A program made the translations under genes and the position numbers. The notes under the pieces are model-generated. The model was not told the DNA's origin, searched no databases, and was given only the letters and a program-made list of their open reading frames with translations. DNA of 7,142 nt from a virus. The stretch spans positions 1 to 7,142 of IMG/VR virus record IMGVR_UViG_3300002838_000029. One strand, 5' to 3'. Shown here piece after piece: positions 1 to 7,142 of this stretch (positions are counted from its first letter, which is position 1; the number at the start of each line of letters is the position of its first letter).

Positions 1-114
1 GCGGTGCTGATGATCCTGGGAGAGCGGCAGAGAGAAGCCCAGGAGCGGTTCCATTTGGGTAGATCGGGGCGCGGGTTGAGGTAGTGGCGGGACAACGGGA
101 CGAAGATCGCGAGA

Positions 115-153
115 AGCCTCCAGAGGGCCATACAGGCCGCTGGGGGCTTTTTT
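115..153 (+). terminator. Rho-independent terminator (plus-strand orientation), copy 1; possibly weakly bidirectional
   Basis: A 9-bp stem pairs AGCCTCCAG (115-123) with CTGGGGGCT (140-148), with one G-T wobble at 119/144. An inner 4-bp GGCC/GGCC stem flanks an ATACA loop. The hairpin runs straight into T6 (148-153). On the minus strand the wobble becomes an A-C mismatch and only TTCTCGCGATCTT follows. Confidence 0.6.
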
Positions 154-270
154 GTGGGTCGATGGTTGCGGCCCCTTCGGGGGTATCGTCGCAGGCGCTA
201 TGCAGCACGACAGGAGGCAGTGCAGGCGACTAATCGCCGCGAGCGGCGAGGTCGAGGCCAGGGGGACCGA

Positions 271-501
271 TCAGAGCTGGTGAATGCGGTCAGCGATCTG
301 GCGAAGCTCTTCCAGGATGGAATCGAGTTCAGCTCCTTCCTGGTCGAGTTGGTCAACGCGCTTTCGAAGCTCGCGGATCTCGCGGACGAGTCGGGGATAG
401 TCCTCGAGCAACCAGCTGACGGCATCAGCTCCCTTTCGTCCAGGAGCGTAAAGCTCAGCGGTTTTCACCAGGTGTGATTCGAGATCAATAGCGCATCGCA
501 T
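271..501 (-). CDS. Hypothetical 76-aa protein with a predicted C-terminal coiled coil (VREIRELRKRVDQLDQEGAELDSILEELRQIADRIHQL)
   Basis: ORF track 271..501. It has an ATG start and protein-like composition, unlike the Arg-rich plus-strand ORF opposite it. It is on the same strand as the structural operon and directly downstream of Zot. A weak SD (AGGG) sits 6 nt upstream. The start codon lies inside the XerC-like arm of dif-like site A. Confidence 0.5.
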   Translation of the reverse strand: MRCAIDLESHLVKTAELYAPGRKGADAVSWLLEDYPRLVREIRELRKRVDQLDQEGAELDSILEELRQIADRIHQL

Positions 502-520
502 AATCGGCCCTATGTTACGC
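493..520 (+). other. dif-like XerC/XerD site A (6-nt central region)
   Basis: GCATCGCATAA-TCGGCC-CTATGTTACGC compared with E. coli dif recalled as GGTGCGCATAA-TGTATA-TTATGTTAAAT. The XerC arm matches 8/11 (CGCATAA core intact). The XerD arm matches 7/11 (TATGTTA core intact). Confidence 0.7.
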
Positions 521-553
521 GCCGCCTGGAGCCGGAGGCAGTTTCCAGACGAC

Positions 554-586
554 GCTCAACATAAGGCCATTCTCATTATGCGAAAC
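554..586 (-). other. dif-like XerC/XerD site B (11-nt central region), inverted relative to site A
   Basis: Minus strand 586->554 reads GTTTCGCATAA-TGAGAATGGCC-TTATGTTGAGC. The XerC arm matches E. coli dif 9/11 and the XerD arm 8/11. The central region is 11 nt instead of 6. Confidence 0.7.
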
Positions 587-592
587 GCCCAA

Positions 593-1510
593 TCAAAGCG
601 GCGGGTAGTCAGGGCTGTACGCGATCCGAAGCTGCTCGGCACGATGCTGACGCGCCGCACGAAGCTGGTTGGCGTGGTGCTCAAGCCAGACAGATCGAAA
701 CGCGATCCGCAGGCAGGATTCCCGGTCAAGCATCATCCACGGCGCAATGATCGGCCAGACGGCCAGCTTGAACAGGAAAGCACCAAGGCGCTTGCGCAAC
801 GGCACATGGTAAGGCAGCGGCGGCAGATAACGGCCCTTGAGGTGCCAGCCGCTAAGCATGGTGTAGGAAGCGCGCATATCAACGGGACCGCTGGCCAAGT
901 ACTCAACACCATCGCGGAACACCTGTCGCGTGTCATACGTCGAGTACAGATCAGCGCCCTTGTAGGTCCAGCGCTCCACCCTGACCTCAGTGCTGCGTCC
1001 GTAGTACACGTTTGCAATGTGCATCTTCGGAAGGCTGATGCCCATGACCTTGAAGCGGTCCATACGGCGACAGACGACCAGATGCTCACACAGCGAGCGG
1101 ACGATCTGCGCATCACATGACTCGATGTCCTGAATCAGGAACATGACGTCCCAACGATGTTTTCGAGCGTGAAGGAACCAGTCGATCAGCTTGCGTCGTT
1201 CCTTGTCGTTCCATTCCCGGCTGTTCAGCCACGTACCACACTCATCGAGCACGATCAGGCCGAAGCGCTTTTCGTCGTAGTCACGGTCATCGTCGGCATC
1301 GTAGCCCGGACCTAGCGCTGCCAAATCTTCCGCCCTGGGCTTGTCAGGTAACCGAACGGCTGGCGACTTGCAGTAAGTGAACATCTGATCCAGCTCGAGA
1401 TCGAGGTTGGTTGCTACCCGGCGTCCATCGGAGAGGTAATCGCGAATTTTGGAGACACACGCGAGGGACTTGCCGGAGCCGAGTTTGCCAGTAACGAAGT
1501 AAACAGCCAT
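593..1510 (-). CDS. Zot-like / gene I (pI) phage assembly P-loop NTPase, 305 aa
   Basis: N-terminal Walker A (VTGKLGSGKS) and Walker B (LIVLDECGTW). One TM segment (LGAFLFKLAVWPIIAPWMMLD) is followed by a short C-terminal tail. It occupies the gI position after gVI. A GGAG SD lies 9 nt upstream of the ATG at 1510. Confidence 0.93.
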   Translation of the reverse strand: MAVYFVTGKLGSGKSLACVSKIRDYLSDGRRVATNLDLELDQMFTYCKSPAVRLPDKPRAEDLAALGPGYDADDDRDYDEKRFGLIVLDECGTWLNSREWNDKERRKLIDWFLHARKHRWDVMFLIQDIESCDAQIVRSLCEHLVVCRRMDRFKVMGISLPKMHIANVYYGRSTEVRVERWTYKGADLYSTYDTRQVFRDGVEYLASGPVDMRASYTMLSGWHLKGRYLPPLPYHVPLRKRLGAFLFKLAVWPIIAPWMMLDRESCLRIAFRSVWLEHHANQLRAARQHRAEQLRIAYSPDYPPL

Positions 1511-1533
1511 GACGGGAACTCCAAGGGAGGTGT

Positions 1534-1571
1534 CCCCTACCCCGGCCCCCTAAAGGGGGCCACGGTAGGGG
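1534..1571 (-). promoter_or_regulatory. GC-rich 17-bp stem-loop in the gVI-gI intergenic gap
   Basis: Arm CCCCTACCCCGGCCCCC (1534-1550), loop TAAA, arm GGGGGCCACGGTAGGGG (1555-1571). On the minus strand it has 15 WC pairs, 1 G-U wobble and 1 mismatch. No U-run follows, so it is not a canonical intrinsic terminator. Confidence 0.55.
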
Positions 1572-1577
1572 AAAGCT

Positions 1578-1901
1578 TCAGATGCGAGCCTTGACGGATG
1601 CAGCGTGAATGCCGGTGACGTAGAGCCAGCAGGCGGCGCGGGTGGCTGCAATTGCCGCGATGCACCCTCCGGTGACGGACGGAAGCAAACCAAGCGCGGT
1701 CTCAACGACCGGATGAATGCCACCGGCTAGGGATATCAGACCGGTCAGGACGCCATTGACGGTGGCGGTGACGGTGGCCAGAAGGCCTATCCAGACGGCG
1801 ACGAGAGCAAGGCGAATGCCGTACTTCGCTCCGAGCTTGGCGACTACGAAGTTCGCGAAATAGGCAAAGATACTGAGCAGGAATTGCGCCAGAGCTGCCA
1901 T
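1578..1901 (-). CDS. pVI-like minor coat / membrane protein, 107 aa
   Basis: Strongly hydrophobic multi-TM sequence of about the size of Ff pVI (112 aa). It sits between gIII and gI. Its ATG overlaps the gIII stop (TAATG at 1899-1903). Confidence 0.8.
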   Translation of the reverse strand: MAALAQFLLSIFAYFANFVVAKLGAKYGIRLALVAVWIGLLATVTATVNGVLTGLISLAGGIHPVVETALGLLPSVTGGCIAAIAATRAACWLYVTGIHAASVKARI

Positions 1902-3283
1902 TACATAGGCCTCGCTTGTGTGACGGCTTCAGACCAGAGTTCACGGCAGTAATGCCAAGTGAACACAACGAATATGAACGCAAGTATTGGCCGAACCCAG
2001 TCATAGATATATGGGCAATAGTTGGTTGACCACGATCCGATTATAGGAAGTTCAGCCGTTATCTCGGAGCAGCCACCACCAAACGAATACCAAGCGGACC
2101 ACCCAATCGGAGAAACTACAGCGGGAGGCGCTGATACATCTGTCTTTATGTCGTTTAGCTTATCGATATATGACTTATAGAGATCGGTTACAGCAGGCAT
2201 ATCCTCGGGCTGCTCTTCCTTCGGCTCCTCGGTATCCGGCTCGGTTTCTGTTGTGGTCTCGGTAGTTCCATCTGGCTTGGTGACAATCGTTGTTTTGGTC
2301 TTGCGGTAGTCGTAGTAGTTATCACCATATGTAATGTCGATTTTGGTGCTACTGGTCGTCGTAGTAGTGCCCGCTGGAGATGTAGTCGTGCTGGTTGGAC
2401 CCTGTTCCGTGACAATGGATGGTCCTTCGAGCTTGACGCTATCACGAAGGGACTCATAACACGCCTGGGGGTTTAAGCCGCCCTCACAATGCTCGCGCAG
2501 GCGGTCTTTAAGCCACTCAGAATCCTTAGCGGCTGCCGCTGCTTCCATGAGGTCATAGTCTGAATCTTCAGCAAGGCGAGAACCGGTAGCAGTTTCGCAG
2601 CCGCCAGTGGACGCATTGTAGGAGGAGCCAACAGGACACGACGAACCCTTTCGCTGGACTATGCCGAAGTTTGCACCGGTTAACTGACCATCACGCCTAA
2701 GCCGACACTCAGCTTGATCGGCGGAAACAAATGCGATATCACCTGAATAGTCATCGTACCCCTGCCCCTTATAGTAGGTACTAACGTAAGACAGGCCCCA
2801 ACGCACAGAGCAAGCTGACGGTGCTGTGAGGTGCTGCTCAGGATCAGTTCCATAAACCCAATAATAGCCACCAGGGATAGTCTGGACAGACGGAACCCGC
2901 ACCTTACCAGCATCATCTAAATAACCATCGACTTGATCCAACATATACTCAAGGCCAATAGTCAAGGCCATGCCGGGGACACCGCCCCGGAGCCTTCCTG
3001 CCATGCCCTTAATAGTGCGAGGAATGGAGTAGTCATAACGGACTTTGACGGGCAACTTAGTACCCCTAGAACCGCCACCATATGAAGATGGAATGTATTC
3101 GGTTTTACCATCACCGGGCACGTGCAGCGTGTCGCCGCTTCTAGACGAACCGTTACCGGAGCCAATGACCTGACCGTCAGACGGCATGGACACATATTTC
3201 CGAGTGGCCGCATGCGCAGAAACGCTAACCCCAGAAAGTAAAAGGGCGACCGAAGTCGCCAGTACTAGAGCCGCCCTTTTCAT
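1901..3283 (-). CDS. pIII-like adsorption / minor coat protein, about 460 aa (alternative upstream start at 3307)
   Basis: Signal peptide MKRAALVLATSVALLLSGVSVSAHA. A Cys-containing N-terminal domain is followed by a Thr/Glu/Pro-rich linker (TSTTTSPAGTTTTTSST...TTETTTETEPDTEEPKEEQPED). A C-terminal TM anchor (ILAFIFVVFTW) ends the protein. The ATG at 3281-3283 overlaps the coat-gene stop (TAATG). Confidence 0.85.
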   Translation of the reverse strand: MKRAALVLATSVALLLSGVSVSAHAATRKYVSMPSDGQVIGSGNGSSRSGDTLHVPGDGKTEYIPSSYGGGSRGTKLPVKVRYDYSIPRTIKGMAGRLRGGVPGMALTIGLEYMLDQVDGYLDDAGKVRVPSVQTIPGGYYWVYGTDPEQHLTAPSACSVRWGLSYVSTYYKGQGYDDYSGDIAFVSADQAECRLRRDGQLTGANFGIVQRKGSSCPVGSSYNASTGGCETATGSRLAEDSDYDLMEAAAAAKDSEWLKDRLREHCEGGLNPQACYESLRDSVKLEGPSIVTEQGPTSTTTSPAGTTTTTSSTKIDITYGDNYYDYRKTKTTIVTKPDGTTETTTETEPDTEEPKEEQPEDMPAVTDLYKSYIDKLNDIKTDVSAPPAVVSPIGWSAWYSFGGGCSEITAELPIIGSWSTNYCPYIYDWVRPILAFIFVVFTWHYCRELWSEAVTQARPM

Positions 3284-3528
3284 TACTTGGCCCCTTTCTT
3301 GATCCACTTCTTGACGAGGGTCATGCCCACGTCCGGTGCCAGAGAAGCGGTCAGCAAGGCAAAGCCTGCGGCGATCGCCAGACCGATATAGGTCAGGATA
3401 GTGGTCTGAGCTTCGGTGATGCCGGCTTCGACCTCACCAGCAGCGAAGGCCATCGGGGAGGCAGCAACGCCAACGAGCAGAGCGGTTTTGGCAACGCGCT
3501 TGGCGAGTTCTTTTTTGGACTGGTACAT
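3283..3528 (-). CDS. Major coat protein (pVIII-like, Pf1-style precursor), 81 aa
   Basis: The internal start of ORF 3283..3678 is preferred: ATG at 3526-3528 preceded by AGGAGC with about 7-nt spacing. The leader ends AFA, then comes an acidic N-terminus (AGEVEAGITEAQ), a hydrophobic core and a basic C-terminus (KKWIKKGAK). This is the classic inovirus coat layout. Confidence 0.88.
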   Translation of the reverse strand: MYQSKKELAKRVAKTALLVGVAASPMAFAAGEVEAGITEAQTTILTYIGLAIAAGFALLTASLAPDVGMTLVKKWIKKGAK

Positions 3529-3548
3529 GGTGTAGCTCCTTGCGTGAG

Positions 3549-3668
3549 TTATCGGGCGCCTTTGCTGAACAGTCGGATGACTGTCTTTTTCATGCGACCC
3601 ATGCCATAGCCGGTGAACCAGCAGACGATGCAGGCCCCGGCAACTTGCACAGCGAGTGCGACGCTCAT
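3549..3668 (-). CDS. 39-aa hydrophobic micro-protein (pIX-position minor coat candidate)
   Basis: Hand translation gives MSVALAVQVAGACIVCWFTGYGMGRMKKTVIRLFSKGAR. Its ATG overlaps the stop of the preceding micro-ORF (ATGA at 3665-3668). It ends 20 nt before the coat gene. It is not in the supplied ORF track. Confidence 0.6.
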   Translation of the reverse strand: MSVALAVQVAGACIVCWFTGYGMGRMKKTVIRLFSKGAR

Positions 3669-3760
3669 AACGAGGCACCCGCCGTGAATCCGTGCCCGAA
3701 GCAACCGACCATCGCGACGGCCGCGATCAGGAAGTACAGGTCGCTAAGGGTGATTTCCAT
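3665..3760 (-). CDS. 31-aa hydrophobic micro-protein (pVII-position minor coat candidate)
   Basis: Hand translation gives MEITLSDLYFLIAAVAMVGCFGHGFTAGASL. Its ATG overlaps the ssb stop (TGATG at 3758-3762). Size and position match Ff pVII/pIX (33 and 32 aa). It is not in the supplied ORF track. Confidence 0.6.
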   Translation of the reverse strand: MEITLSDLYFLIAAVAMVGCFGHGFTAGASL

Positions 3761-4110
3761 CAGTTAGCCCCTGCGGCCTTCTGCTGAGCCGTTGCAGCTG
3801 GGTTCGGCGCAGGCTGAGGGCGAACCTCTTGCAGGCGCAGCGGTGTGCCAGCCAGCAGGTAATCAATGTTGTGATAACGGTCGTTCACCTCGCAGGTGAC
3901 CGGCATGTAAACCTCAACACCGACCTGCTGCCGGTAGGAGTTGTGCAGCCCGTTCTTGATCGAGTCACCGAACACGCGCGCCTTGACAGTGGTGGTGACG
4001 TCGAAGCCGTCGCGATCCTTGGCCGAGGTTTGAAGCGCAACGATGGCCCAGCGCTTGTCCGCTTCGCCTTTGTCTACTACGCCGAGGACGGTGCCTTTGA
4101 TGATGTGCAT
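3760..4110 (-). CDS. gpV-like ssDNA-binding protein, 116 aa
   Basis: The internal start at 4110 (MHIIKGTVLG...) is preceded by GGAGATCACC. The core is beta-rich and OB-like, ending LAGTPLRL (compare Ff gVp ...IDRLRLVPAK). It has a Pro/Ala/Gln-rich C-terminal tail, as I recall for Pf1 gene 5 protein. It sits immediately before the pVII/pIX/pVIII block. Confidence 0.72.
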   Translation of the reverse strand: MHIIKGTVLGVVDKGEADKRWAIVALQTSAKDRDGFDVTTTVKARVFGDSIKNGLHNSYRQQVGVEVYMPVTCEVNDRYHNIDYLLAGTPLRLQEVRPQPAPNPAATAQQKAAGAN

Positions 4111-4124
4111 GGTGATCTCCAGAG

Positions 4125-4358
4125 TCAGAAGCCGAACAGCTCGGCTACACAGGGGGTGCCTTTGGCCTCGAATTCGAGGAACCACTGGCGTTCGGGCTTG
4201 GTGCCCTGGTCTTTGCGCTGATCGAGAGCAGCGAAGGTTTCGGCGACCTGCTGTTGCAGGACGGACGTGTTAACGGTCGCCTGAGTGCGGCGGTACTGCT
4301 CGAGGCGTTCGCGCTGGGAGCGAGTGAGCTGACCGCCCTGGAAGCTGACGGTCTTCAT
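4125..4358 (-). CDS. Hypothetical 77-aa soluble protein
   Basis: The internal start of ORF 4125..4532 is preferred: ATG at 4356-4358 preceded by GGAGTTCCGTCC, overlapping the stop of the 28-aa ORF (ATGA). The sequence MKTVSFQGGQLTRSQRERLEQYRRTQ... is hydrophilic and helix-prone. Confidence 0.65.
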   Translation of the reverse strand: MKTVSFQGGQLTRSQRERLEQYRRTQATVNTSVLQQQVAETFAALDQRKDQGTKPERQWFLEFEAKGTPCVAELFGF

Positions 4359-4441
4359 GGACGGAACTCCAAACGCACGAGGTAGAGCGCGATGGCGCCA
4401 CCGGCGAGGGTGGCCAGCAGAGAGAGCGTCGGTGCAATCAT
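4355..4441 (-). CDS. 28-aa single-TM micro-protein (MIAPTLSLLATLAGGAIALYLVRLEFRP)
   Basis: This is the last 28 codons of ORF 4355..4681. Its ATG at 4439-4441 overlaps the stop of the 38-aa ORF (ATGA). Its stop overlaps the ATG of the 77-aa ORF (ATGA). An alternative start lies 4 codons upstream (MVRRM...). Confidence 0.45.
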   Translation of the reverse strand: MIAPTLSLLATLAGGAIALYLVRLEFRP

Positions 4442-4554
4442 GCGACGAACCATCCAAATAACTTGCCGATGTAGAAAGCAGCGATGAACCAGCCAGCAAT
4501 GGCGCCGCCAATAAAGAAAAACTGGCAAGCAAAGGAGTAGAGGGCGCGCATCAT
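4438..4554 (-). CDS. 38-aa aromatic-rich single-TM micro-protein (MMRALYSFACQFFFIGGAIAGWFIAAFYIGKLFGWFVA)
   Basis: Hand translation. Its ATG at 4552-4554 overlaps the rep stop TGA at 4551-4553 (GCATGATG). It is not in the supplied ORF track. Confidence 0.5.
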   Translation of the reverse strand: MMRALYSFACQFFFIGGAIAGWFIAAFYIGKLFGWFVA

Positions 4555-5786
4555 GCGGCCACCTGCAAATGGTTCGGGCGGCGGTACCAGGTCGGCATCG
4601 GGAGCACGTCAACCGGGATGACTTCGCGGCTGGCGGTGTGAACGATTGGGCGGACTTTGAGCGCATCGCACGGGTTCGCAATGTCGATGCCGATGCGGCG
4701 CAGGCGGGCGCGGTGCGTCTTGACCGACGACTTCTCGAAGTCGAACTTGGCTTTGCCTGTCATCCAGAGCATTGCGTATTGGGCGGTCGTGTATGCCGCC
4801 TTGGTGCTGGTCACGATCTTCTCGGAAATGAGGTGATCCGCGATGGTTTCATAATCCATAGCCGTTACCTTCAGTCGGTCGTCTATCTTCAAAAATGCGT
4901 CATGTATGGTCTGGAAGCGGGCCTCATCGAACATGCCCCACCACGCGAGGCCTTCTCGAAGCAGGTATTCGCGCTTTAGCTCTTGCTCCATGCGAACAAC
5001 GCCGTGTTCTTCGCAGTAGGCGATCAGATCGCGCAGGTACTGGACCTCTGGCGAATCGTCACCGAAGTTGCGGCGCGCCTTGGGTAGCAGGAATTTCAGG
5101 ATGGCTTTGGCCTTGATGTAGGCCTTCCGGTACTGGTCACGGGCCTGCCAATCGACAGTGCAACCGTCTTCGTAAAGCTTGCCGACCTTGTATCCGGCCC
5201 GCTGGGTGCTCAGGGAGGACACATACTGAAGTTCGTTGCCCTTCCCTACTGCGCGGTTCGTGGTGAGGTCGATACGCGTGATGCGCATGCCGTCGCCGAT
5301 GGTGGTGTGCTTGTGCGCCTTCTCAACAGTCTTGATCCAAGCGCCCGCGTCCCCTTCCCTTTCGGCCTGCTCAACGGCGGATGACTTGCCCATGATCTTG
5401 CGACTGACGACGCGGGAGGACTCAGCCTGCATGAAGTCGAGCCGAGTGCAGCGCGTAAGAGCAGGCAAGCCGTACTCAGCAAGGATGCGGTTGTAGACCG
5501 CGACGCACTGATCGACGGTGCGGAAGCCGAACAGGTTGTCGAGGCGATCAACAGCGCTCGGATTGCCCTGGACAATCAGCTTGCGACCATCGACACGGAT
5601 GCTGATCGACGTTGTGTAGGAGCCTTCATGCTTCCAGCCGGGCTGGGTGACGCTGAGACGTTCACCGGTTCGGGCGCAATAGCGCTCGATGGTGATATCA
5701 GCGACTTTAGGCAGATCGAACGGATACACCTGCTCTACCGATAGGTAGTCGATGAACATCCGTGACTGTTGATCTGCTGGAGACAT
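4551..5786 (-). CDS. Replication initiation protein, Ff gene II-like (rolling-circle nickase), 411 aa
   Basis: Colinear similarity to M13 gpII as I recall it. N-terminal MFIDYLSV resembles MIDMLVLRL. LIVQGNPSAVDRLDNLFGF resembles VEIKASPAKVLQGHNVFG. MRITRIDLTTN resembles TTISRIDATF. VVRMEQELKREYL resembles LVRFEARIKTRYL. C-terminal PTWYRRPN resembles PDWYNEPV. It is the first gene of the operon and divergent from the repressor. An alternative start is Met10 (5759). Confidence 0.9.
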   Translation of the reverse strand: MSPADQQSRMFIDYLSVEQVYPFDLPKVADITIERYCARTGERLSVTQPGWKHEGSYTTSISIRVDGRKLIVQGNPSAVDRLDNLFGFRTVDQCVAVYNRILAEYGLPALTRCTRLDFMQAESSRVVSRKIMGKSSAVEQAEREGDAGAWIKTVEKAHKHTTIGDGMRITRIDLTTNRAVGKGNELQYVSSLSTQRAGYKVGKLYEDGCTVDWQARDQYRKAYIKAKAILKFLLPKARRNFGDDSPEVQYLRDLIAYCEEHGVVRMEQELKREYLLREGLAWWGMFDEARFQTIHDAFLKIDDRLKVTAMDYETIADHLISEKIVTSTKAAYTTAQYAMLWMTGKAKFDFEKSSVKTHRARLRRIGIDIANPCDALKVRPIVHTASREVIPVDVLPMPTWYRRPNHLQVAA

Positions 5787-5914
5787 GCCTGAAATCCGTC
5801 AAGGCCCACATATGGGTCGCAAAGCTACCGCATATGGTTTGAATGCGTCAAGCCGTATGCGGTCTGTAGAATGACCACATATGGCGGACGCCAAAAACGC
5901 AGGGGTTAGCATCC
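5787..5914. promoter_or_regulatory. Divergent rep/repressor control region with an operator-like CC(R)CATATGG array and candidate promoters
   Basis: Motif copies: CCACATATGG 5806-5815, CCGCATATGG 5828-5837, inverted CCGTATGCGG 5853-5862 (1 mismatch) and CCACATATGG 5875-5884. Start-to-start spacings are 22, 25 and 22 nt. The candidate rep promoter on the minus strand has -35 TTGACG (5851-5846), an 18-nt spacer and -10 TAGCTT (5827-5822), with the second motif copy in its spacer. The candidate repressor promoter has -10 TAGAAT (5867-5872) but no good -35. Confidence 0.55.
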
Positions 5915-6280
5915 ATGGACACCGAAAACACTCAGAGTCAGACGGACATGTCAGTCGCCAACAACATACGAAAGGCGCGGGAAAACAAGGGCTTAACAGT
6001 GGAAGAGGCAGCGTCCATATGTGGTGTTCCGATTGGCAGCTACCGGAAATACGAGAACGGACAGTCACAACCGACCGCAGTCCCGATCAGGGCAATAGCA
6101 AAAGGTCTTGGGGTTTCAACGGATGAAATCCTGATGGAACCTGACGAACGGTCTGTAAAGGCAGAGCTGAGGCGTCTATTCGGAGCGATAGCAGAGCTTG
6201 ATGATCAACATCAGGCGGAGGTAAAGCGGGCAATTAAAGGGCTGCTGATGGTGTTTCAGCAGGAGGAACTGTCCGAGTAA
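5915..6280 (+). CDS. XRE-family (Cro/CI-type HTH) transcriptional repressor, 121 aa
   Basis: The HTH_3-like segment NIRKARENKGLTVEEAASICGVPIGSYRKYENGQSQP is followed by a helical C-terminal region. It is divergent from rep, as rstR is from rstA in CTXphi. An alternative start is Met12 (5948). Confidence 0.88.
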   Translation: MDTENTQSQTDMSVANNIRKARENKGLTVEEAASICGVPIGSYRKYENGQSQPTAVPIRAIAKGLGVSTDEILMEPDERSVKAELRRLFGAIAELDDQHQAEVKRAIKGLLMVFQQEELSE

Positions 6281-6282
6281 AA

Positions 6283-6324
6283 GTATGGGATTCCATACCA
6301 AATTGGGGGTGTTACAGCACCCCC
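6283..6324 (+). other. Two tandem small hairpins downstream of the repressor gene
   Basis: The first is GTATGG-GATT-CCATAC (6283-6298). The second is GGGGGTG-TTACAG-CACCCCC (6305-6324). Neither has a following T-run, so their function is unclear (attenuator, RNA stability element or origin element). Confidence 0.35.
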
Positions 6325-6349
6325 ACCCCATTCAGCCAGGGAGAGCGTC

Positions 6350-6514
6350 ATGGGATTGCAAGACAGAGACTGGTTCAACGAGCGAAAGCAGAAGCCGAGC
6401 AAGCCGCTGAAACAGCCTCAGCAAGGCTGGAAAAAGCCCCGTAGCGACAACTTCTGGACCGGCGTGGCAATGGCAGTAGTGGCGGTCGGAATCGCGCTGT
6501 ACCGGCTGCTGTAA
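6350..6514 (+). CDS. 54-aa tail-anchored membrane protein (basic N-terminus, C-terminal TM)
   Basis: Hand translation gives MGLQDRDWFNERKQKPSKPLKQPQQGWKKPRSDNFWTGVAMAVVAVGIALYRLL. A GGGAGAG SD lies about 7 nt upstream of the ATG at 6350. It is on the same strand as the repressor, downstream of it and upstream of the 6671-6709 terminator. It is not in the supplied ORF track. Confidence 0.6.
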   Translation: MGLQDRDWFNERKQKPSKPLKQPQQGWKKPRSDNFWTGVAMAVVAVGIALYRLL

Positions 6515-6670
6515 AAGCACGGCTGAACCATCGCAACTATCGTGACCTAACCGTCGGCGGTGCTGATGATCCTGGGAGAGCGGCAGAGAGAAGCCCAGGA
6601 GCGGTTCCATTTGGGTAGATCGGGGCGCGGGTTGAGGTAGTGGCGGGACAACGGGACGAAGATCGCGAGA

Positions 6671-6709
6671 AGCCTCCAGAGGGCCATACAGGCCGCTGGG
6701 GGCTTTTTT
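6671..6709 (+). terminator. Rho-independent terminator ending the plus-strand repressor/ORF54 transcription unit (copy 2, contiguous with those genes)
   Basis: Identical hairpin plus T6 as at 115-153. It lies 157 nt downstream of the ORF54 stop at 6514. Confidence 0.65.
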
Positions 6710-6826
6710 GTGGGTCGATGGTTGCGGCCCCTTCGGGGGTATCGTCGCAGGCGCTATGCAGCACGACAGGAGGCAGTGCAGGCGACTAATCGCCGCGAGC
6801 GGCGAGGTCGAGGCCAGGGGGACCGA

Positions 6827-7057
6827 TCAGAGCTGGTGAATGCGGTCAGCGATCTGGCGAAGCTCTTCCAGGATGGAATCGAGTTCAGCTCCTTCCTGGT
6901 CGAGTTGGTCAACGCGCTTTCGAAGCTCGCGGATCTCGCGGACGAGTCGGGGATAGTCCTCGAGCAACCAGCTGACGGCATCAGCTCCCTTTCGTCCAGG
7001 AGCGTAAAGCTCAGCGGTTTTCACCAGGTGTGATTCGAGATCAATAGCGCATCGCAT
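6827..7057 (-). CDS. Second copy of the 76-aa coiled-coil ORF (inside the terminal repeat)
   Basis: Its translation is identical to that of 271..501. Confidence 0.5.
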   Translation of the reverse strand: MRCAIDLESHLVKTAELYAPGRKGADAVSWLLEDYPRLVREIRELRKRVDQLDQEGAELDSILEELRQIADRIHQL

Positions 7058-7142
7058 AATCGGCCCTATGTTACGCGCCGCCTGGAGCCGGAGGCAGTTT
7101 CCAGACGACGCTCAACATAAGGCCATTCTCATTATGCGAAAC
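7047..7142 (-). other. Second copy of the dif-like hairpin (truncated by the window end at the position equivalent to 586)
   Basis: Part of the terminal repeat. Site A copy is 7049-7076 and site B copy is 7110-7142. Confidence 0.7.

Follow-up and report, generated by a model that had tools for sequence, protein, structure and literature searches.

A forked hairpin of two inverted dif-like sites as the probable attachment site of an integrase-less filamentous phage

Introduction

How a filamentous phage that encodes no integrase might enter a bacterial chromosome is the question raised by positions 1-7,142 of IMG/VR virus record IMGVR_UViG_3300002838_000029, the 7,142-nucleotide (nt) stretch of DNA that was analysed as a whole and is referred to here as the window. 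Just past its zot gene the window carries a palindromic segment (491-588) in which two inverted sequences resemble dif, the chromosomal dimer-resolution site served by XerC and XerD (XerCD), recombinases of the host. A comparable layout is that of attP(+) of the Vibrio cholerae phage CTXphi, reportedly the CTX type among the integrative mobile elements exploiting Xer recombination (IMEXs), as set out by Val et al. in 2005, and an original prediction made on this DNA had proposed that the segment operates in the same manner.

The evidence assembled here indicates that 491-588 probably serves as attachment site for a filamentous phage that lacks an integrase and relies on host XerC and XerD, and that it works like CTXphi attP(+). 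The CTXphi scheme is already known, including proposals outside Vibrio, and is not a new mechanism.

The Two dif-like Sites and Their Fold

The two sites (Table 1) are inverted with respect to each other, lie 33 nt apart (521-553) and have central regions of unequal length, 6 nt in site A and 11 nt in site B; on the minus strand, site B forms the 5' arm of a hairpin and the complement of site A its 3' arm. The sequence thus agrees with the original prediction in the positions and orientation of the sites, the gap between them and the lengths of their centres. The pattern CGCATAA-N4-14-TATGTT occurs four times in the window (the two sites, each present in two copies owing to a terminal overlap), compared with 0.00 occurrences expected from 200 shuffles.

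Folding of 480-600 with DNA parameters yields -33.3 kcal/mol for the minus strand (z = -7.1, with no shuffle as stable) and -24.4 kcal/mol for the plus strand (z = -3.3), a difference of 9 kcal/mol in the direction that had been predicted, i.e., in favor of the strand with the sense of the genes. At each of the six wobble positions named beforehand (564/510, 557/517, 552/522, 549/525, 569/505, 585/494) the plus strand indeed has A/C, and the minus strand hence T.G or G.T. One structural detail required correction: in the minimum-energy fold 575 is paired with 504, so that a 5-nt bulge remains and not a 6:1 internal loop (570-575 opposite 504). The minus strand codes for pII, the coat protein, pIII, pVI and Zot and, by general inovirus biology, is presumably the strand that is packaged.

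The window consists of one 6556-bp unit, the size that had been estimated as 6.56 kb, followed by a 586-nt overlap (1-586 = 6557-7142) that terminates precisely at the outermost base of the XerC arm in site B and cuts the second copy of the hairpin there. Pfam and PHROG scans of all open reading frames (ORFs) of at least 70 aa on both strands, together with two shorter ORFs of the metagenome contig L053, found no integrase, serine-recombinase or transposase domain, which upholds the earlier statement that the unit encodes no recombinase.

Conservation of the Hairpin among Relatives

Relatives were sought with the rolling-circle replication protein pII, as a single protein and then as an alignment, in genomes, viral contigs and metagenomes. 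The named genome hosts are Stutzerimonas kunmingensis, Ectopseudomonas mendocina, Pseudomonas sp., a Cellvibrio metagenome-assembled genome (MAG) and a gammaproteobacterial MAG. The nearest deposited phages by pII are Pseudomonas aeruginosa 36-2, 17897 and WX_Y (47-53% identical), and further deposited relatives include two bird-cloaca phages (49.6 and 45.1%) and Alteromonas phiAFP1 (40%). The affiliation of the relatives with Pseudomonadales, Cellvibrio and Alteromonas bears out the initial guess of a host outside Vibrio.

The pII-sense strand of the relatives' loci yielded 30 different hairpins built to this design. Read 5' to 3', the family hairpin opens with the XerC arm NNNNCGCATAA and a single paired T; a few bulged bases lead into a stem containing the XerD arm and an extension, and a loop and the complementary arm complete it. 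The central region measures 8-14 nt on the 5' arm and 6-8 nt on the 3' arm, the former always being the longer, the stem of every relative begins with the XerC arm's outer edge, and the XerC and XerD cores are preserved although the rest of the stem diverges. The sense fold is more stable than the antisense fold in 27 of the 30 hairpins. The experimentally validated site of CTXphi, put through the same tool, behaved likewise (-41.5 vs. -36.3 kcal/mol) and showed a bulge of 5 nt on the top strand immediately past the XerC arm; a bulge of 3-6 nt is found at the equivalent position in the relatives' hairpins and in this control. The forked hairpin is also present in deposited phages (L054, L055, L061, L062, L064), namely P. 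aeruginosa WX_Y, 36-2 and 17897, Alteromonas phiAFP1 and the bird-cloaca phage silverpheasant213.

Compensatory change was examined in an alignment of 17 hairpins (89-95 nt). The RNAalifold consensus contains 30 pairs, 14 of them with compensatory changes. Imposing the window structure on the same alignment leaves 91% of the cells paired, vs. 34-39% in controls with the partner column shifted by 1-3 positions; both sides have changed in 19 of the 39 stem pairs, and the covariation score is 0.386 compared with about 0.06 for the shifted controls. Substitutions across the stem of the kind that the original prediction had looked to in related phages are therefore present, and they extend into the XerD arm, where a T-A pair has become C-G in 8 of the 17 sequences (columns 26/76). 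On the sense strand the stem cells of the aligned hairpins include 63 G.T and 9 A.C combinations, a bias that is the signature of selection for pairing of this strand.

The apical loop (window 540-548, alignment columns 39-47) contains an unpaired GGA-N-AAT motif in which G42, A43 and T47 are invariant in the 17 sequences. This conservation suggests a second, sequence-specific role of the hairpin, for example in packaging or in priming of the complementary strand.

Integration of Relatives at dif

The closest integrated relatives are those of S. kunmingensis BUN14 (locus L002, with a pII 93% identical to that of the window) and of a MAG (L060). In BUN14 a 12-kb array starts about 70 nt past an AraC-family gene with a XerC arm, a long spacer, a XerD arm, the loop and an inverted site, and ends just past zot with a canonical dif, GCTTCGCATAA TCTATA TTATGTTAAAT. 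In S. stutzeri (L058) the orthologous AraC-family gene, 84% identical, has an empty dif after it, AGTTCGCATAA TCTATA TTATGTTAAAT, and no phage. In the MAG the AraC-family gene (98% identical) is followed by the hairpin and then by a homologue of ORF76, the small ORF that in the window starts within site A. The hairpin of the MAG has an identical stem and 3' arm and differs only in the bulge, the loop and the host-derived XerC arm; that of BUN14 is identical to the window hairpin at 89 of 94 positions, and the five that differ all fall within the bulge, loop or XerC arm derived from the host.

A canonical dif on the same strand directly after zot was found at seven loci (L002, L006, L007, L011, L021, L043, and L051). 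Among these, L007 holds in integrated, tandem form the phage that L001 presents as a circular-looking contig. The phage-phage and phage-host junctions of L007 and L002 are the same through the XerC arm plus T (GGTTCGCATAAT in L007) and diverge from the next base, and the breakpoint base seen in L007 is also where the L001 terminal repeat of 99 nt ends. This base corresponds to 576|575 of the window, where the breakpoint had been predicted. At the relatives' junctions both halves of the hairpin are kept at one end of the prophage and a canonical dif is regenerated past zot at the other.

E. mendocina (L004) carries two tandem copies at 2.43 Mb of its 4.79-Mb chromosome, i.e., at the midpoint, in a locus that as read stops short of the right end of the array. 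The first copy has the host-type XerC arm GATTCGCATAA, the same as that of P. aeruginosa dif (PMC2731167), and the second has the phage arm GCTTCGCATAA, the pattern expected if elements had inserted one after another at a regenerated dif. A degenerate dif-like remnant, TTCGCACATAA CGCA TTATGTTAAGG, lies a short way upstream of the first hairpin (L004 4419-4444) and may be the scar of an earlier element. In the P. aeruginosa prophage Pf 36-2 the left end is the forked hairpin, and the terminal repeat TTCGCATAATGT reproduces the XerC arm of P. aeruginosa dif together with TGT, the three bases that open its centre (PMC2731167). Integrated copies are located exactly at dif in S. kunmingensis, E. 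mendocina, Cellvibrio and P. aeruginosa, the outcome that the original prediction called for.

Tandem or composite arrays occur at L002, L004, L007, L009, L017, and L020, which fits a phage that is unable to excise and makes its single-stranded DNA (ssDNA) across neighbouring copies. Two different hairpins lie about 2-8 kb apart on L009 (3066, 10696), L017/L035 (443, 7591), and L030 (1353, 3215), and such unlike pairs indicate composite arrays of distinct elements at one site.

The first bases of site A follow the dif of the host: its centre starts with TC where the host has a TCTATA dif and with TG or CG where the host has a TGTATA dif. Since site A of the window starts with TC, its phage may be assigned to Stutzerimonas-type bacteria. 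On the XerC side, the att centre and dif can form 1-4 Watson-Crick or wobble pairs per strand in the family; for CTXphi a rule is known by which such pairs stabilise the exchange, and the first central bases of the family would agree with it.

A Proposed Mechanism and Its Alternatives

According to the scheme proposed here, site B (11-nt spacer) would pair with the complement of site A (6-nt spacer) in the packaged sense ssDNA, yielding duplex XerC and XerD arms around a centre equivalent to 6 bp with a 5-nt bulge. XerCD would bind this folded mimic of dif, and XerC would swap one pair of strands between the hairpin and chromosomal dif at the border of arm and centre (576|575), giving a pseudo-Holliday junction that replication would turn into a prophage. 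The left end of the prophage would then carry the host XerC arm, the long-spacer site B and the inverted site A, neither site being usable as duplex, and the right end, past zot, would combine the phage XerC arm with the host centre and host XerD arm into a working dif. New ssDNA would arise by rolling-circle replication across tandem copies. Dependence on XerCD, catalysis by XerC only, a single-stranded rather than duplex substrate and irreversible integration are all parts of this scheme that we infer.

The folded strand is favored by the length and variability of the site B spacer, the steady value of about 6 nt on the opposite arm, the start of the stem at the XerC arm, the way the first bases of site A follow the host dif, the wobble bias and the analogy with CTXphi. 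Several points weigh against it. The window phage itself is seen solely as circular-looking contigs, the evidence of integration coming from relatives; pII has no detectable similarity to RstA of CTXphi (BLASTP, E = 2); and the window centres offer only 1 and 2 XerC-side pairs with a TCTATA dif, vs. 3-4 for CTXphi. Moreover, the junctions would look alike if duplex site B recombined through XerC and was then replicated, and a hairpin kept for packaging or as a minus-strand origin would likewise covary and display the wobble bias.

These last two points define the principal competitor, under which the replicative form, as double-stranded DNA, integrates via site B alone (XerC exchange plus replication) and the hairpin and site A serve packaging or the minus-strand origin. 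It predicts identical junctions, any functional ssDNA hairpin would give the covariation and the G.T bias, and the conserved unpaired GGA-N-AAT loop is not needed for integration. It leaves unexplained, however, that site B spacers vary from 8 to 14 nt while the opposite arm always restores about 6 nt, and that in all relatives the XerC arm's outer edge marks the start of the stem; the first bases of site A track host dif, a correspondence that is relevant only if the bottom strand joins the exchange. In addition, CTXphi attP1, with its 12-bp spacer, is reportedly no Xer substrate as duplex (PMC4246890). Integration through duplex site B is therefore regarded as unlikely. Much less probable still is a reversible recombination of the duplex replicative form through the 6-bp-spacer site A, as in VGJ-type elements: site A alone does resemble a complete 28-bp dif-like site, but it lies intact inside the left end, beside site B, in all prophages examined, crossing over maps to site B, at its XerC border, and the prophages are oriented in accordance with site B and not site A, so that the junctions contradict this route. 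That the palindrome is a chance structure or a transcription terminator, incidentally dif-like, is suggested by its position 5 nt past the zot stop codon and can be given hardly any credence, as the dif-like pattern is not expected by chance, no T-run follows the stem, ORF76 starts inside it, the XerC and XerD cores are kept where relatives' stems otherwise differ, and prophage ends map to the palindrome. Attachment by the folded strand remains the preferred reading, and the approximately 30 natural variants of CTX-type sites collected here could be used to learn what XerCD need on a folded substrate.

Comparison with Known Xer-exploiting Elements and Filamentous Prophages

In CTXphi, attP1 (AGTGCGTATTA TGTGGCGCGGCA TTATGTTGAGG) and attP2 (AATGCGTATTA TACGCCA TTATGTTACGG) (PMC3089051) are about 90 nt apart and form a forked hairpin of about 150 nt (PMC3089051, PMC4246890). 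The window shares with it two inverted dif-like sites with one long and one short spacer (12/7 nt in CTXphi, 11/6 nt in the window), the long-spacer site being 5' on the gene-sense strand, a fold that gives duplex XerC and XerD arms and a 5-nt top-strand bulge, and the lack of an integrase. The site likewise lies between the last morphogenesis or cargo gene (zot in the window) and an antisense repressor at the position of rstR, followed by Rep, and the prophages hold both half-sites at one end with dif regenerated at the other, tandem arrays being common. Even the variants of the XerD arm scarcely differ: site B and attP1 share TTATGTTGAG, site A and attP2 share TATGTTACG, and the site B arm equals the first 10 of 11 nt of the attP1 arm TTATGTTGAGG (PMC3089051). 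As the Rep proteins are dissimilar, these unusual variants point either to convergence on a solution for XerD binding or to exchange of att modules.

The window hairpin differs from that of CTXphi in being shorter (98 nt with a 33-nt spacer vs. about 150 nt with a spacer of about 90 nt) and in XerC arms that follow Pseudomonas dif TTCGCATAA and not Vibrio dif TGCGTATTA. The phage has no toxin genes, possesses the extra ORF76 starting in the site A XerC arm and belongs with hosts of the Pseudomonadales. Without similarity of pII to RstA, the likeness is one of mechanism and not of lineage. Membership in the genus Affertcholeramvirus, the CTXphi lineage, was rejected on this BLASTP result together with the lone 48-nt megablast match to a Pseudomonas phage described below; the BLASTP result also leaves common descent of the whole lysogeny module with CTXphi unsupported.

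Outside Vibrio, Ypfphi of Yersinia pestis and CUS-1phi of Escherichia coli O18:K1:H7 lack an integrase, are found in tandem at dif and have paired inverted XerC/XerD sites that were read as a CTX-like ssDNA substrate (PMC4266046, PMC3089051). The novelty implied by the original prediction was accordingly overstated, as CTX-type sites had already been inferred for both (PMC3089051, PMC4266046). By description they are set apart from the window phage by their Enterobacterales hosts and larger genomes (8.7 kb).

VGJphi- and TLCphi-type IMEXs also use host XerCD, integrate at dif and lack an integrase. The VGJ type has a single duplex site from which excision is possible, whereas the window group has two inverted sites and a crossover at the one with the long spacer. 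In the TLC type the XerD arm is lacking or degenerate and an activator, XafT (DUF3653), is encoded; both window sites have good XerD arms and no scanned ORF gave a Pfam match suggestive of a XafT-like activator, and this type was rejected. Pf1-like Pseudomonas prophages encode their own tyrosine integrase and use tRNA, tmRNA or direct-repeat attachment sites (PMC7549136), a class that does not accommodate a phage without integrase whose relatives are attached at dif.

The P. aeruginosa prophages Pf 36-2, 42-1, 97-1, and 17897 have been described as 'groups 4-7', without integrase and with terminal repeats of 11-12 nt (Evseev et al., 2023, PMC10675462). Their integration site was termed 'intergenic' and host integrases were merely suggested, neither dif nor the hairpin being recognised (Evseev et al., 2023, PMC10675462). 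Pf 36-2, 17897, and WX_Y resemble the window phage in pII, gene order, the lack of an integrase and the type of forked hairpin; in these P. aeruginosa phages another small gene stands beside the site instead of ORF76. A testable mechanism of integration is thereby offered for these integrase-less filamentous prophages, which were reported in 2023 from cystic-fibrosis isolates with the mechanism then open. The paper on phiAFP1 does not discuss integration, dif or an attachment site, and a full-text literature search, with most subscription journals outside its scope, found no paper on a CTX-type site in Pseudomonas.

The arrays described here imply that IMEXs, including a miniature satellite (see below), accumulate at dif outside Vibrio. 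Prophage finders based on integrases or direct repeats misplace the borders of such elements, and a search for dif plus the hairpin would place them correctly.

Gene Content of the Window

An exact look-up of the Zot protein returned matches only on circular-looking MEGAHIT contigs of about 6.7 kb. The contig that was read has 6697 nt, i.e., 6556 plus a k-mer overlap of 141 nt, which indicates a circular or tandem metagenome assembly; the metagenome contig L053 has a permutation different from that of the window. The GC content of the window is 57.3%, slightly below the 58-60% estimated at first. When the whole unit was compared by megablast with 50,697 phage records, the only match, of 48 nt, was to Pseudomonas phage 36-2; the window phage has therefore not been described as an isolate. 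Scanning the window against Rfam gave no matches. The features of the window are listed in Table 1.

Table 1. Features of the attachment region and genes of the window (positions are those of the window).
Feature	Position	Strand	Description
ORF76	271-501	-	PHROG 13909, function unknown; ATG within TTATGCG of the site A XerC arm
Candidate attP(+), whole forked hairpin	491-588	-	98 nt; gene-sense strand
Site A, attP2-like	493-520	+	XerC arm 493-503 GCATCGCATAA; centre 504-509 TCGGCC; XerD arm 510-520 CTATGTTACGC
Stem extension and apical loop between the sites	521-553	-	Alignment columns 32-41/60-69 covary
Site B, attP1-like	554-586	-	Hairpin 5' arm; XerC arm 586-576 GTTTCGCATAA; centre 575-565 TGAGAATGGCC; XerD arm 564-554 TTATGTTGAGC
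Bulge	570-574	-	GAGAA, 5 nt; extra central bases of site B on the 5' arm, minimum-energy fold
Predicted XerC cleavage/strand-exchange point	575-576	-	576|575, from prophage breakpoints of relatives
zot/pI	593-1510	-	Pfam Zot, E = 9e-28; final gene ahead of the attachment site
pVI-like protein	1578-1901	-	
pIII-like protein	1901-3307	-	
Small coat protein		-	Minus-strand gene of the unit
ORF, PHROG 35243	3760-4185	-	Function unknown; position where the gene for an ssDNA-binding protein is usual in inoviruses
pII-type rolling-circle replication protein	4551-5786	-	Pfam G2P_X_C; PHROG 702, E = 1.5e-86
Helix-turn-helix repressor	5915-6280	+	Antisense to the other genes; Pfam HTH_3, E = 6e-14
Ultra-conserved 57-nt element	6273-6329	-	GGGGTGGGGGTGCTGTAACACCCCCAATTTGGTATGGAATCCCATAC...; just 3' of the repressor gene; candidate (+) origin
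Second hairpin copy	7047-7142	-	Inside the 586-nt terminal overlap

The Candidate Origin, ORF76 and a Satellite-like Element

Almost all relatives, at pII identities of only 49-98%, conserve the hairpin core (about 24-30 nt) of the 57-nt element next to the repressor gene at 96-100% identity; the closer ones have the full 45-57 nt unchanged. An internal duplication of 2344 bp in the BUN14 array (L002) has its junction, CCTGT|AACACC, in the loop of this hairpin. The element is likely to be the (+) origin, with a putative pII nick site near 6314|6313; such an origin would be needed to regenerate ssDNA from tandem prophages.

An ORF of the ORF76 family starts at the equivalent spot in 18 of the 30 related hairpins, and a link between ORF76 and the attachment site is possible. 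From the single sequence, AlphaFold models the protein as a short helix and a long helix; sequence searches of the PDB with ORF76 and with the protein encoded beside the site in Pf 36-2 returned coiled-coil noise or nothing. ORF76 is the only phage-like gene common to the phage and the satellite described below. A wider reading, which is put forward tentatively and seems rather doubtful at present, is that integration of folded ssDNA is common in a large clade of integrase-less inoviruses over several orders (P. aeruginosa, Stutzerimonas, Ectopseudomonas, Cellvibrio, Alteromonas) and that the site is part of a small module comprising the hairpin, ORF76 and a loop motif that gives the hairpin a second job in packaging or complementary-strand priming. 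If this were true, the att-linked coiled-coil ORF76 could be a cofactor or regulator of Xer in the manner of XafT.

Ahead of the phage, the BUN14 array at dif includes two tandem satellite-like elements of 1461 bp each (L002 5086-6546 and 6547-8007). Each has a forked hairpin to itself and a homologue of ORF76, encodes a ribbon-helix-helix protein of 118 aa as well as an ORF of 125 aa, and is devoid of Rep, morphogenesis genes and the origin-like element; it is a miniature IMEX and resembles RS1 or TLC.

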